In this document: positions 51,172-63,301 of the stretch, in pieces
Layout: each line of letters begins with the position of its first letter
Position numbering within the stretch: position 1 is the first letter of the stretch
From: a virus
Reading direction: 5' to 3' (one strand)
Length of the DNA stretch: 64,000 nt
IMG/VR virus record: IMGVR_UViG_3300035698_014118
Coordinates: 14,190 to 78,189 of that record
Program-made: the position numbers and the translations under genes
Notes under the pieces: model-generated
Seen by the model: only the letters and a program-made list of their open reading frames with translations
Told to the model about the DNA's origin: nothing
The model's database searches: none

Positions 51172-51200
51172 GGCTCTGTGGCGGAATTGGCATACGCGCG
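51172..51200 (+). pseudogene. 5' remnant of a class II tRNA-Leu
   Basis: GGCTCTGTGGCGGAATTGGCATACGCG, then no anticodon or T arm. Confidence 0.7.
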
Positions 51201-51253
51201 GGTAGCTGAACTTAAGCCATTAAAAATCCGATATAAAGATAAAGGAGTAGATA

Positions 51254-51736
51254 ATGGCTAATAAAAAGTACAAACGTTATAGGGATAACGATATAATAGA
51301 AGCAGCTAAAACATCTTTTTCTGTAGCTGAGGTTTTGAGAAAAATAGGTTTGGTTCCAATTGGAGGAAATTATCAAACGATAAATAGGTCTATTAAGAGG
51401 CTCGATATTGATATTTCTCATTTCACAGGTAAAGGACATCTGAAGGGAAAAACACATAATTGGACACAGCCAAGACCTTTAAATGAAATTCTTGTAGAAG
51501 AATCCACTTATAGGAATACAAGCCATTTAAGATATAGATTACTTAAAGAAAATATTTTTGAGAAAAAATGTAACCGATGTGGAAGAAAGACTTGGCTTGG
51601 AAAACCTATATCTTTAGAACTAGAACATAAAAATGGCAATAAAGCTGATAATCGTTTAGAAAATCTAGAGATATTATGTCCTAACTGTCACGCTTTTACT
51701 CCAACATATCGAAAAAGAAAAATTGCGGCGGTGTAG
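51254..51736 (+). CDS. HNH homing endonuclease
   Basis: CNRCG..LELEHKNG..DNRLENL..LCPNCH; stop lies inside the next tRNA. Confidence 0.85.
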   Translation: MANKKYKRYRDNDIIEAAKTSFSVAEVLRKIGLVPIGGNYQTINRSIKRLDIDISHFTGKGHLKGKTHNWTQPRPLNEILVEESTYRNTSHLRYRLLKENIFEKKCNRCGRKTWLGKPISLELEHKNGNKADNRLENLEILCPNCHAFTPTYRKRKIAAV

Positions 51737-51799
51737 CCCAATGGCAGAGGCCCGGAGTTTAAGTCTCCGTAAGTGTGGGTTCGAATCCCATCACCGCTA
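51727..51799 (+). tRNA. tRNA-Leu(TAA), short variable arm
   Basis: CGGAG-TTTAAGT-CTCCG. Confidence 0.85.
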
Positions 51800-51830
51800 T
51801 TGAGTTATCGTTTATTAAGGAAGTTAAACT

Positions 51831-52973
51831 ATGAAAATTGGTATTGTAGGATATGGAGTTGTAGGCAAAGCAATCGAGTTTGGTTTCAGTACACATCTCA
51901 AAAACATGATACTTATTCAAGACCCAGCTTATCCTGATATTTCTGTTGGATTAGAAAAAGTAGTCCAAGATGCTGATTTTATATTCATAGGCGTTCCAAC
52001 TCCTATGACTAAGGTAGAAGGTGGCGCTATAGATACAAGGATCATGGATAGCGTTATAAAAGATATTTCTCAGATAGATGGATATGATAATCCTATCTAT
52101 ATTATCAAAAGTACAGTAACACCTGATAAGCTAGATGAATATGCGAAGACATACCCCGATATGAAACTTTGCATGAGTCCAGAATATCTAATAGATCGCA
52201 ATCCGCTTGAGGCGTTCATTGAAGAACCAATGATTGTTATTGGCGGCGAGATAGAACATACTTGCGCAGTTGAAAACCTATTTAGAACGTATAGCGATTG
52301 TAAAACGGACAAGTATTACCATTGCGATTTAATTGCCGCTGGCGTCCTGAAGTATATGGAAAACTGCTATTTGGCTCTTAAAGTAACTTTAATGAATCAG
52401 TTCTACGATATTCTTCAAAAGTCTGGTTCTAATGATACTTGGGAAAACGTATCTGAGATATTCCATGGCGATCCACGAATGGGTAATAGTCATGGTGCTG
52501 TTCCCGGACCTGATGGCGATAGAGGTTGGGGTGGAAAGTGCGTTTTGCCTAATGCTAAAGTTAAAATTAAATACAATGAAACTATTAATGATACGACTCT
52601 ATCACATGAAAAAGATAGCAAAATTGTTGAAGAAAAGAAATTGTTGTTTGGGAATAAATATAACGATATACCAGATGAAATGTATATTAGCGAATTATAC
52701 AGTTATTTTCACGATAAAGGTATTAAAGAGGTTCATGTTAGTCAGAACATTATTTGGGTAGAATCTTGTGATGATGAATTGGAAGAATTAGGACAACGAG
52801 CTATTAAGGACGTAGAAGTCAGAAATATTGATGAAGATATCTATGTATTTGATACAAATAATGGGAAATTTGAATGTACGTCAGAGCATTTAATGCCTGT
52901 CTTAAGGGACGGTAAAAAAATTATAATTCAAGCTAAAGATATAAAGGAAACAGACCTATTATTCTCGAAATAA
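51831..52973 (+). CDS. UDP-glucose/GDP-mannose dehydrogenase N-extein fused to split intein N-half
   Basis: GYGVVG, VPTP, IKSTV, PEYL, KYMEN; GWGGK|CVLPNAKV..CTSEHLM. Confidence 0.85.
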   Translation: MKIGIVGYGVVGKAIEFGFSTHLKNMILIQDPAYPDISVGLEKVVQDADFIFIGVPTPMTKVEGGAIDTRIMDSVIKDISQIDGYDNPIYIIKSTVTPDKLDEYAKTYPDMKLCMSPEYLIDRNPLEAFIEEPMIVIGGEIEHTCAVENLFRTYSDCKTDKYYHCDLIAAGVLKYMENCYLALKVTLMNQFYDILQKSGSNDTWENVSEIFHGDPRMGNSHGAVPGPDGDRGWGGKCVLPNAKVKIKYNETINDTTLSHEKDSKIVEEKKLLFGNKYNDIPDEMYISELYSYFHDKGIKEVHVSQNIIWVESCDDELEELGQRAIKDVEVRNIDEDIYVFDTNNGKFECTSEHLMPVLRDGKKIIIQAKDIKETDLLFSK

Positions 52974-53009
52974 AATAGGAAAGCATTTACCACTAAATCC
53001 CAGGATAAT

Positions 53010-53777
53010 ATGATTATAAAATATTTGATTAAATCTCATGGTATTATAAATACAAAAACACAAATTGAATTTAAATGTGATCAATGTAAAGCAAAATATA
53101 GTATGGTAAATAGAAACTATTTATCTATGAAATCTAGTCCATATTACATAAAGGATTATTGCTCTAAATGTTGGCGAAAAGTCTTAAATAATCGGCCGGA
53201 GTATAAAAAAAATATGTCTAAGGCAATTAACAAGATGTATGCAGATAGGCCAGAGATTAGGGATAAAAAACGCAAATCTATGATGGGTAAAAATGCTGGT
53301 GATTCAAATGGTATGAAGCAAAAAGAAGCAAGAATGAAGGTATCTAAAACAAGAAAAAAGATGTTTAAAGATAACCCCGAATTGAAAAAATTATATTCTG
53401 AGAAAATAAAAAAAGCTTGGGCTGATGGTAAATTTGATGGAGTAAGAGTTGGACGATGTAAATGGTATGATTATAAACATTCTAATGGTAATATATACAA
53501 AGTTCAGGGTACTTGGGAATTAGCTTTTATAAAATGGCTTGATAAAAGTAAAATGGAATTCACATGTCACAGAGGAAGAATACCTTATATTATAGATGAT
53601 ACTCAAAGAAACTATTATCCTGATTTTTGGGTAAATATATGGGATTGTTTTGTAGATGTAAAATGTAAACATTTTTATAATGAAAAAAAGTTTAATGCTA
53701 TACGAAGTAGTAATCCAGATAAAGAAATTAGGATATTATTCAAGAAAGATTTACATAAATTAGGAGTCAAATTATGA
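53010..53777 (+). CDS. free-standing homing endonuclease (basic NUMOD-like repeats plus a PD-(D/E)XK domain)
   Basis: QGTWELAF..YYPDFWV..VDVK; located between the split-intein halves. Confidence 0.75.
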   Translation: MIIKYLIKSHGIINTKTQIEFKCDQCKAKYSMVNRNYLSMKSSPYYIKDYCSKCWRKVLNNRPEYKKNMSKAINKMYADRPEIRDKKRKSMMGKNAGDSNGMKQKEARMKVSKTRKKMFKDNPELKKLYSEKIKKAWADGKFDGVRVGRCKWYDYKHSNGNIYKVQGTWELAFIKWLDKSKMEFTCHRGRIPYIIDDTQRNYYPDFWVNIWDCFVDVKCKHFYNEKKFNAIRSSNPDKEIRILFKKDLHKLGVKL

Positions 53778-54067
53778 AAACTATAAAAATTAACTCTATT
53801 TCCAAAAGACCGTACAAAGGTCCGGTATACAATTTACATTTAGAAAGTGTATCTGATAAAGATGATCTTTTTTGGATAGAACAAAATACTGGTATCGTAA
53901 CTCATAATTGTTTTCCAAAAGATATCAACGCAATAATCCATTATTGTGATTCGGTTCTTGGATATGATTTGGGTATTATGAAGAAAGCTTGGCAAATCAA
54001 TCTAGGAATCAGAAAAGATATTGATTGGGCCAAAATCGCTGGCGCAGTTAGCGAAGATTACGAATAA
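53774..54067 (+). CDS. split intein C-half fused to the dehydrogenase C-extein
   Basis: MKTIKINSI..VYNL..IVTHN|CFPKDINA. Confidence 0.88.
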   Translation: MKTIKINSISKRPYKGPVYNLHLESVSDKDDLFWIEQNTGIVTHNCFPKDINAIIHYCDSVLGYDLGIMKKAWQINLGIRKDIDWAKIAGAVSEDYE

Positions 54068-62377: not shown

Positions 62378-62379
62378 TA

Positions 62380-62721
62380 ATGAAAATTCATAAAGATTAC
62401 ATGAAAAGATGTGGTATTACTAAAAGTGGAGCAATTCTATATTTTTTAAAACCCTATAAATGGCTTTGGTTTTATAAAACCGGTTCACAGTCTGCGATAG
62501 CTACTGTTAGCCCTGGAAAAGGAACGTTTGGATTTGATTTTTGGGAATTCAAATTTAAAAACCCTAAAAAACCTGATTGGGTTTATCAGAATCCTCGCAT
62601 AAATAGTGGAAATCTGTTTTCTGTCTTTCGTTGTTTGACTGACTTTGCTGCTTTAGGTGTTCCTATTCATGTTTTTGAAAACGAAATATTAGATTTTTAT
62701 TGGGAAGAGATGTTTGTATAA
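62380..62721 (+). CDS. W-tag protein
   Basis: Ends FYWEEMFV. Confidence 0.6.
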   Translation: MKIHKDYMKRCGITKSGAILYFLKPYKWLWFYKTGSQSAIATVSPGKGTFGFDFWEFKFKNPKKPDWVYQNPRINSGNLFSVFRCLTDFAALGVPIHVFENEILDFYWEEMFV

Positions 62722-62801
62722 GGAAGATTTGGGCATTGGCAGGCCCACTCGTTTCGAAAGCGAGCGCCTACGGGCTTATAGGTTCGATTCCTATCCTTGC
62801 A
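62722..62801 (+). pseudogene. tRNA-Ser(CGA) with a broken acceptor stem
   Basis: CTCGT-TTCGAAA-GCGAG and a T arm are present; the 3' acceptor strand does not pair. Confidence 0.55.
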
Positions 62802-62807
62802 AATCCA

Positions 62808-62829
62808 CGGGATGTAGCTCAGTTTGGTT
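62808..62829 (+). pseudogene. 5' remnant of tRNA-Pro
   Basis: CGGGATGTAGCTCAGTTTGGTT. Confidence 0.7.
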
Positions 62830-62890
62830 CTGGGATATGAAGAAGGAGTTCAAACTTCTATATCGAATGTAAGTCATAAAGGAGATACTT

Positions 62891-63250
62891 ATGGCTTACA
62901 CAGATAAGAATAAAAAACTAGCTTATGATAGAGAATACTATCGTAAACATAAAAGTAAAATAAATAGTAGACGTTATAAACGAATACGAATTAGTAGAAA
63001 GATATTCAAAGAAGAAATAAATACTCTAAAGGCAAAGCAAGGTTGTAAACTTTGCGATGAAAATCATCCATCTTGTTTGGTGTTTCATCACAAAAATGAT
63101 GACAAAATAGCAAATGTAGCTGATGCCATTCATTTGTCATGGTCAAGAGAAAGAGTTTTTAAAGAGATTAATAAATGTGATATTCTTTGTTCGAATTGTC
63201 ATATGAAATTGCATTGGAAGTTAACACGGGGCGTGGCGCAATTTGGCTAG
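62891..63250 (+). CDS. HNH homing endonuclease
   Basis: CKLCDENHPSCLVFHH..EINKCDILCSNCH; stop lies in the D-arm of the next tRNA. Confidence 0.8.
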   Translation: MAYTDKNKKLAYDREYYRKHKSKINSRRYKRIRISRKIFKEEINTLKAKQGCKLCDENHPSCLVFHHKNDDKIANVADAIHLSWSRERVFKEINKCDILCSNCHMKLHWKLTRGVAQFG

Positions 63251-63301
63251 CGTGCTTGTCTGGGGGACAAGAGGTTGCAGGTTCAAATCCTGTCGCCCCG
63301 A
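63227..63301 (+). tRNA. tRNA-Pro(GGG)
   Basis: CTTGT-CTGGGGG-ACAAG. Confidence 0.88.

Follow-up and report, generated by a model that had tools for sequence, protein, structure and literature searches.

Homing endonucleases are thought to persist in essential genes only within self-splicing introns or inteins, or else to lie between genes. How, then, could several of them have come to stand directly behind broken transfer RNA (tRNA) genes in a single phage tRNA array? The question is raised by a 64-kb stretch of the 78,189-nucleotide (nt) viral record IMGVR_UViG_3300035698_014118 (positions 14,190 to 78,189 of the record; G+C 36%). In this stretch, which was analysed as a whole and is called the window, ARAGORN finds 21 tRNA genes at 43122-63301, all on the + strand with small open reading frames (ORFs) in between; all coordinates below are those of the window, and every feature given with coordinates lies on its + strand. 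Comparing sequences, we arrive at a probability of roughly 65% that at least 4 free-standing homing-endonuclease cassettes, each consisting of a nuclease gene and a complete tRNA gene joined to it, colonised this array and overwrote tRNA genes in doing so. The putative cassettes belong to two HNH families and one family that combines a helix-turn-helix (HTH) with LAGLIDADG motifs, and their proposed targets are tRNA genes, which for HNH1, HNH2, and the LAGLIDADG enzyme would be those of tRNA-Leu.

A sequence-only reading of the window had reported three triads, each made of the 5' remnant of a tRNA gene (hereafter stump), an HNH gene, and an intact tRNA gene, and all of their coordinates check. 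The first triad opens with the stump of a class II tRNA-Leu (51172-51202; acceptor strand GGCTCTG, D arm, and start of the anticodon stem), which begins one base past the stop codon of the upstream ORF. Its bases 51178-51199 are identical at 22/22 positions to positions 7-28 of tRNA-Leu(AAG) at 56965-57048 (E 2.5e-7), an 84-nt gene that is the sole intact long-arm tRNA-Leu of the array and the reference for the stumps. HNH1 follows (51254-51736), a free-standing gene of 160 codons matching phrog_10822 (E 8e-48), with Pfam HNH_3/HNH matches just under the curated cut-off. The end of HNH1 overlaps by 10 nt a tRNA-Leu(TAA) with a short variable arm (51727-51799; 73 nt, A73, called by ARAGORN, Rfam 54.5 bits), and its TAG stop codon (51734-51736) falls on tRNA positions 8-10. 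The second triad has the stump of a class II-type tRNA-Leu at 58831-58855 (acceptor strand ACGCCTG and D arm), whose motif TGGAATGGCAGAC occurs once in the window versus 0.03 times expected. Next comes HNH2 (58920-59639; 239 amino acids), of the same family as HNH1 (phrog_10822, E 1.7e-45; BLASTP E 2e-25 between the two), and then a short-arm tRNA-Leu(TAG) (59662-59735; 74 nt, ARAGORN, Rfam 50.6 bits) that starts 22 nt past the HNH2 stop codon.

The third triad concerns proline. A dead tRNA-Pro at 62808-62868 has a clear 5' part (62808-62828), identical at 15/15 positions to tRNA-Pro(TGG) at 43705 (E 0.003) and with a 16/17 match also among those to Pro tRNAs. The 40 nt past this stump still bear a weak likeness to the anticodon loop and T arm of a Pro tRNA (local alignments, p ~0.03, uncorrected), and therefore a decayed whole gene with an internal deletion is likelier here than a clean stump. 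HNH3 (62891-63250; 119 amino acids) belongs to another family (phrog_3106, E 1.8e-20) and its TAG stop codon (63248-63250) lies inside an intact tRNA-Pro(GGG) (63227-63301; ARAGORN, Rfam 60.2 bits), with an overlap of 24 nt; thus two HNH stops do lie inside the new tRNA, as had been reported. The residues of the HNH motif read C..C, EH, N, and CPNCH in HNH1, C..C, HH, N, and CSNCH in HNH3, and end in CPNCD in HNH2. Stumps 1-3 end 52-69 nt upstream of the HNH genes, and their acceptor strands differ from those of the tRNAs that follow.

The sequence-only reading was right that the three cases are real, and it understated the pattern, since scanning the window with its own tRNAs revealed a fourth, clearer case at 54734-55561 that it had missed. 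Here, the stump of a class II tRNA-Leu (54734-54757; acceptor strand GCCGGTG and D arm) is identical at 18/18 positions to Leu(AAG) (E 6e-5) and broken after ...GGCATAC. It is followed by a gene of 245 amino acids (54801-55538; Pfam HTH_23 and LAGLIDADG_3) with a double LAGLIDADG motif, whose frame traverses a complete, nested short-arm tRNA-Leu(CAA) (54927-55000; 74 nt, ARAGORN, Rfam 51.3 bits). The first LAGLIDADG motif starts four codons past the 3' end of the nested tRNA. Overlapping the endonuclease stop codon, we found the 3' piece of the broken tRNA-Leu (55537-55561), with T arm, acceptor strand CACCGGT, and A73, and its acceptor strand is complementary to that of the stump. The nested tRNA shares the acceptor stem (GCCGGTG/CACCGGT) and A73 with the surrounding broken gene, but its D and T stems differ and it has no long variable arm. 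The two pieces of the broken gene total 49 nt and contain neither anticodon arm nor variable arm; since these arms of the old gene are gone, the arrangement points to replacement and not to an intron.

The nuclease gene itself is intact. In 19 homologues, both motifs (LLGIYLGDG and LRGLIHSDG) are kept without change, including the acidic residues of GDG and SDG. An AlphaFold2 (AF2) model of the protein (predicted local distance difference test, pLDDT, 88.9) has three N-terminal helices and a disordered segment at residues 44-57, which are coded by the tRNA, and the core matches I-AniI, I-Tsp061I, and I-DmoI in Foldseek searches (E 1e-6 to 3e-8, probability 1.00). As modelled, the protein has the fold of a double-motif LAGLIDADG enzyme. 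Including this case, the distance from the end of the stump to the start codon of the endonuclease is 44-69 nt for each of the four. Given about five such genes in a 20-kb array, a rough estimate puts the chance of four such placements near 1e-7.

One reading of such split genes is that they are tRNA genes with introns, the stump being the 5' exon, the nuclease lying in a self-splicing intron, and a 3' exon completing the tRNA. Bacterial tRNA-Leu and tRNA-fMet genes are indeed known to host group I introns with homing endonucleases in their anticodon loops (PMC3984707), and both halves of a tRNA gene, each intact, flank the HNH gene of Dulem virus 42 (PP511876.1; locus L059, 1395-2016), the best GenBank relative of HNH1 (52% identical), which occupies an insertion of 535 nt that cleanly splits a long-arm tRNA-Leu(TAG) in its anticodon loop. 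Rfam, however, gave no group I or group II intron match in 42500-64000 of the window at E<=10, nor in the Dulem virus 42 insert at E<=1. Moreover, no 3' acceptor strand complementary to stumps 1-3 was found downstream of them, and the pieces flanking the LAGLIDADG gene are too incomplete, as described above, to make up a tRNA. The intron reading is thus extremely unlikely and, as neither a match to an intron model nor a fitting 3' exon was found, we rejected it. The Dulem virus 42 insertion is the most direct sign that the HNH1 family enters and disables tRNA-Leu genes. In its record, the HNH gene is annotated as 'NinG recombination protein', the split tRNA is unannotated, and ARAGORN reports a spurious permuted tmRNA.

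A further gene of the window may be related to such events. At 56821-56957, some 40 nt are inserted into the anticodon region of a class II tRNA-Leu-like gene whose D and T arms are good (acceptor GCGACTA/TGGTCGC); ARAGORN misses this gene in normal mode and finds it in intron mode only. The sequence ATAATGGTAA(G)ACTC is common to this insert and to the leader of the Dulem virus 42 HNH insert. Possible readings are that the gene is a pseudogene, that a lost nuclease cassette left a scar in it, or that it contains a small intron.

The LAGLIDADG family shows the pairing with tRNA genes in other genomes as well. Searches with the protein found over 7,900 homologues about 250 amino acids in length, the closest being 48-57% identical over full length (up to 64% over two thirds). 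As the scans of its loci were seeded by the protein alone, they are free of selection for tRNA-Leu. Results showed that 15/16 loci in IMG/VR adjoin tRNA genes, mostly tRNA-Leu, that 78/80 loci in metagenome contigs (L274-L353) lie within 400 nt of a tRNA-Leu gene, and that 80/80 loci in Actinomycetota genomes (L354-L433), including Mycobacterium, Mycolicibacterium, Streptomyces, Kitasatospora, and Solirubrobacterales, lie within 1 kb of one. Twenty loci, nearly all from Streptomyces or Kitasatospora, have the same order of a conserved upstream sequence, a short-arm tRNA-Leu(CAA), a spacer (~110 nt in most), and the nuclease gene.

The nesting recurs as well. A short-arm tRNA-Leu lies at the same position of the protein in L267, L291, L293, L315, and L339, six loci with the window, and its first base always starts a codon (frame offset 0); the G+C content of the four loci measured (L291, L293, L315, and L339) ranges from 37 to 66%. 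The peptide coded by the tRNA (VSQLAEE...RFES.H), located between the two domains, is kept in the closest homologues (48-57% identity), and distant homologues have a Cys-rich linker in its place. A chance run-through of the frame across the tRNA was rejected, considering the same frame and position in six loci and the conserved domains on both sides. Since these six loci are unrelated, the tRNA within the ORF must travel with the nuclease, and we consider it very probable that the tRNA of the LAGLIDADG cassette is cargo. In addition, class II Leu stumps in L267, L260, and L293 are broken at the same nucleotide as in the window (...GGYAKAC|). In L260, the tRNA overlapping the nuclease stop codon has the anticodon CAA, the one Leu anticodon that none of the four intact long-arm Leu genes in its surroundings carries.

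The HNH families show comparable junctions. In L078 and L133 the HNH gene stops at the same TAG of GTAGCCC (tRNA positions 8-10) as HNH1 of the window; in L005, L087, and L111 the HNH ORF ends inside, or at most 3 nt from, a short-arm tRNA-Leu; L133 and L005 hold further orphan stumps. Long-arm tRNA-Leu genes are also abutted by HNH1-family relatives in Atu_ph07, LR745208, and the crAss-like phage cr126_1 (MT774391.1; L434 701-1194). In this last phage, an unannotated relative lies between tRNA-Phe and a class II tRNA-Leu, and the protein match to HNH1 extends 14 nt into the latter. In other phage contigs, relatives of HNH3 stand between tRNA genes of various kinds; these loci had been picked for tRNA-Leu, and the association is thus biased. 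Altogether, the free-standing nuclease genes occur scattered among unrelated genomes, at sites of one kind, and nearly all loci sampled lie next to tRNA genes, often tRNA-Leu. Comparison supports that they belong to families living against or inside such genes in many unrelated genomes. It also supports that the unit of nuclease plus tRNA recurs, down to the details of the junctions, in phages that are not related to one another, whether a stump is present or not. In Synechococcus phage S-CRM01 (L056) and in L080, a short-arm tRNA-Leu(CAA), an HNH1-family gene, and an ARAGORN tRNA-Ile(TAT) were observed in this order, the latter being 90 nt long and overlapping the HNH stop codon in L056, and 75 nt long and starting 8 nt past the stop in L080.

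These same comparisons bear on another explanation, in which the tRNAs are resident neighbours, the nucleases home to the 5' edge of any tRNA gene, and the stumps are scars of untidy break repair or of partial duplication. Relatives of HNH1 adjoin several kinds of tRNA, most short-arm Leu tRNAs of phages (and one in the window) stand free of any nuclease, and partial duplications driven by the endonuclease SegB are documented in tRNA clusters (PMC13096335). However, the stumps are of the long-arm type and the tRNAs behind them of the short-arm type, so that one cannot be a duplicate of the other; stumps 1-3 have acceptor strands unlike those of the following tRNAs; and the LAGLIDADG enzyme has its tRNA inside the ORF in six unrelated loci. 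We regard resident neighbours as an unlikely explanation. Simple duplication of one tRNA gene was rejected, as stump and successor differ in class and acceptor stem.

What kind of tRNA would the proposed cassettes supply? A long variable arm (class II) is a feature of all canonical bacterial tRNA-Leu. The window contains four 'Leu' tRNAs with a short arm, at 51727, 54927, 57690, and 59662, that have the D arm GTAGCCCAA..GGCAGAGGC in common and A73 in all cases; the one at 57690-57765 (anticodon TAG, called by ARAGORN) has neither stump nor nuclease next to it. These four are 73-76 nt long. Short-arm tRNAs as a group are 73-77 nt long with a variable region of 4-5 nt, thus lacking the class II arm, and keep the Leu anticodon, A73, and a leucine-type AAT(T)GGCAGA D loop. 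The tRNAs attached to nucleases score 50-60 bits in Rfam versus a gathering cut-off of 29, and 12 nuclease-linked copies show compensatory changes in 15/21 pairs, with no pair broken and A73 in all. Judged by these scores and this covariation, the attached and nested tRNAs are real tRNA genes. A pattern scan of IMG/VR with the short-arm D arm gave 87 matches, 80 of which are short tRNAs with Leu anticodons, indicating a family that is widespread in phages. In E. coli, A73 and the layout of the D loop matter for recognition by leucyl-tRNA synthetase (LeuRS), and the variable arm does not. It is plausible, from A73 and the leucine-type D loop, that the short-arm tRNAs are charged with leucine.

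The short arm may also be what keeps the pairing in place. A possible benefit to the phage is that a tRNA-Leu of this type escapes defence nucleases that cut the long arm, with the endonucleases spreading or amplifying it; this would be compatible with cassettes. We know of no defence nuclease aimed at the variable arm of tRNA-Leu. The short-arm family is widespread in phages and retains the leucine D loop and A73, and a precedent exists in T4/T6 SegB, which can amplify tRNA-Tyr and in this way lead to escape from the Septu defence (PMC13096335). The same pair of LAGLIDADG gene and short-arm tRNA is found, however, in Streptomyces chromosomes, and we hold a benefit to the phage to be quite unlikely as the main reason for the pairing.

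Several observations weigh against cassettes that carry their own tRNA. About 70 of the 80 sampled short-arm Leu loci (~90%) have no adjoining nuclease, like the copy at 57690 in the window, and since such nuclease-free copies are common, the HNH-linked ones might be resident genes and not cargo. The relatives of HNH1 that adjoin class II tRNA-Leu or non-Leu tRNAs (Glu and Gly in Rhodococcus phage Dorin; also Pakpunavirus B8) show that the link to the short-arm type is not obligatory, and the stump in L133 is itself of the short-arm type, which is thus not immune as a class. Many of the HNH comparison loci were chosen for containing tRNA-Leu, so that the association is inflated for these families. 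HNH1 and HNH2 are only 36% identical, and in HNH2 the last His of the motif (CxxCH) is replaced by Asp. The Pro stump resembles slow decay and not a cut, making the Pro case the weakest of the three HNH cases. Finally, no close relative of the phage, and no empty site or cassette-free allele for its lineage, turned up in the collections searched.

These points fall unevenly on the proposed cassettes. In contrast to the LAGLIDADG tRNA, the status of those next to HNH1 and HNH2 as cargo is favoured only slightly, and that of the Pro tRNA next to HNH3 is doubtful. The proposal of homing without an intron, with a cargo tRNA that both compensates for the damage and resists cleavage, had been made in the sequence-only reading. 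Its mobile cassettes and its compensation are well supported by comparison (recurrence elsewhere and the CAA anticodon of L260).

Under the cassette model, we envisage the following series of events. The nuclease would cut a resident tRNA gene, presumably in its 5' half, and repair from a cassette-bearing genome, the presumed donor, would copy in the nuclease gene and the attached tRNA. The resident gene would be destroyed, its first 21-31 nt persisting as a stump (together with its last 25 nt in one case), and in the next round of homing the stump would act as a left homology arm that travels along. The attached tRNA, reading a codon of the same amino acid, would supply the lost decoding, so that the phage would lose nothing; for leucine, it would do so with a short variable arm, the leucine D loop and A73 being kept. 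It may also resist cutting by the nuclease, which is purely an inference. Overlap or nesting would keep recombination from parting the tRNA and the nuclease ORF, and would make a clean deletion of the nuclease gene impossible without loss of the tRNA. Moreover, the nuclease mRNA is expected to be cut when ribonuclease P and 3' processing release the tRNA; this would take off the nuclease stop codon in cases 1 and 3, possibly resulting in low nuclease levels.

The closest known system is SegB of T4 and T6, a free-standing GIY-YIG homing endonuclease in a tRNA cluster that cuts tRNA genes at a T-arm motif (tRNA-Asn of T2L) (PMC2330249, PMC13096335) and drives the preferential inheritance of itself and of flanking tRNA genes without an intron (PMC2330249); the sequence-only reading had cited the homing of T4 segB in a tRNA region. 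SegB homologues are enriched beside tRNAs (PMC2330249, PMC13096335). Like SegB, the nucleases of the window are encoded by free-standing genes lodged between phage tRNA genes, but they are of the HNH and LAGLIDADG types, and neither PMC2330249 nor PMC13096335 reports stumps left by SegB, a replacement tRNA of different structure, or a SegB ORF that overlaps or encloses a tRNA. I-DmoI, I-Tsp061I, and I-AniI resemble the LAGLIDADG enzyme in predicted fold and in the two LAGLIDADG helices with conserved acidic residues. They are, however, encoded in introns of rRNA or protein genes, whereas the window enzyme is free-standing, has an N-terminal HTH, and lies in or beside tRNA-Leu, and in one subfamily a tRNA gene serves as interdomain linker. 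The group I introns of tRNA-Leu(UAA) and tRNA-fMet anticodon loops (PMC3984707) share with the cassettes a tRNA target and a host that is kept supplied, but they remove the cost by RNA splicing, whereas the cassettes, in which no intron is detectable, apparently do so through a second gene. Genes for HNH proteins beside tRNA arrays have been noted before (PMC8421152). Full-text literature searches, including ones aimed at this arrangement, turned up no account of replacement tRNAs behind tRNA stumps, of an endonuclease ORF with a tRNA nested in it, or of phage tRNA-Leu genes with a short arm.

The DNA of the window is that of an uncultured salt-lake phage. Its genes include those for terminase, portal protein, ribonucleotide reductase, and helicase, and contigs identical to parts of it are present in salt-lake metagenomes of several studies. 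A megablast of the window against GenBank phages gave no match, the best match of its terminase is 28% identical, and no close relative of the dehydrogenase gene that flanks the cassettes was found in IMG/VR. In contigs of four salt-lake runs, the phage is present only in short pieces and no nuclease-free allele was found; all joints in these runs that skip a nuclease gene have sides of 20-27 nt, and each corresponds to an intact class II tRNA-Leu of another organism.

The flanking dehydrogenase offers a second example of an endonuclease accommodated within a gene, of a type already known. By its sequence features, the UDP-glucose dehydrogenase gene (51831-54067) is a fractured gene, split by an intein with a free-standing endonuclease between the halves. 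ORF 51831-52973 encodes the N-extein and the N-part of the intein (junction ...GWGGK|CVLP...), ORF 53010-53777 a free-standing endonuclease-like protein (Phage_endo_I/DUF7487, phrog_945), and ORF 53774-54067 the C-part of the intein and the C-extein (junction ...VTHN|CFPKD...). An uninterrupted homologue reads GGKCFPKD, and in L178 and L179 the exteins adjoin without a gap; L181 and L182 share the layout of three ORFs seen here. The intein directly precedes the Cys of the conserved GGKCFPKD, a Cys that is probably catalytic. In fractured genes, a free-standing endonuclease separates the two parts of a split intein (Dassa et al. 2009, PMC2677866) and, like the nucleases of the proposed cassettes, is tolerated inside an essential gene; the arrangement acts at the protein level by trans-splicing, whereas tRNA cassettes would replace the gene and not mend its product.

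Other features of the window were also noted. Within the tRNA array, a full-length GOLLD RNA (RF02032) was found at 44591-45052 (183.7 bits versus a gathering cut-off of 150, E 1.5e-50), in which the ARAGORN tRNA-Lys(ttt) at 44661-44735 is embedded. A pilin-like ORF of the array (45744-46640) has an N-terminal methylation motif; further ORFs there encode a radical SAM protein (47380-48360) and a NUDIX hydrolase (49740-50177). Three tRNA-like pieces are not called by ARAGORN (46647-46735, 47189-47270, and 63745-63822); two of them are weak class II or tRNA-Sec-like Rfam matches (29 and 20 bits) and one is an orphan T arm with an acceptor-like remnant near the end of the window. The ORF for the large subunit of ribonucleotide reductase (7982-11749; 1255 amino acids) shows homology only from residue 530, and the portal ORF (30969-33236; 755 amino acids) is HNH-endonuclease-like at its end (residues 600-732); both may contain further inteins or fused nucleases.

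In conclusion, the cassettes suggest a further solution for a homing endonuclease beside introns, inteins, and intergenic sites, namely to destroy a gene and to supply a substitute on the same piece of DNA. We tentatively extend this to a general third strategy next to introns and inteins, that of carrying a spare copy of the gene that is broken. Its extreme form would be a spare tRNA serving as interdomain linker in the nuclease frame, inseparable from the side of the host, with tRNA processing throttling nuclease expression; and the short-arm tRNA-Leu of phages and some Actinomycetota would be the product of an arms race, either as a cut-resistant allele spread by cassettes or as one kept for escaping defence nucleases that cut the long arm. 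If true, the cassette model would account for the dead tRNA stumps and duplicate isoacceptors of phage tRNA arrays, and for the large uncharacterised LAGLIDADG family (more than 7,900 sequences) at tRNA-Leu genes in phages, mycobacteria, and streptomycetes. It would also account for the leucine tRNAs that lack the long arm, a class that is unannotated and bears on substrate recognition by LeuRS. The enzymes would probably be natural meganucleases directed at a conserved tRNA-gene sequence, and the tRNA nested in an ORF provides a ready test case for tRNA processing versus translation of one transcript.

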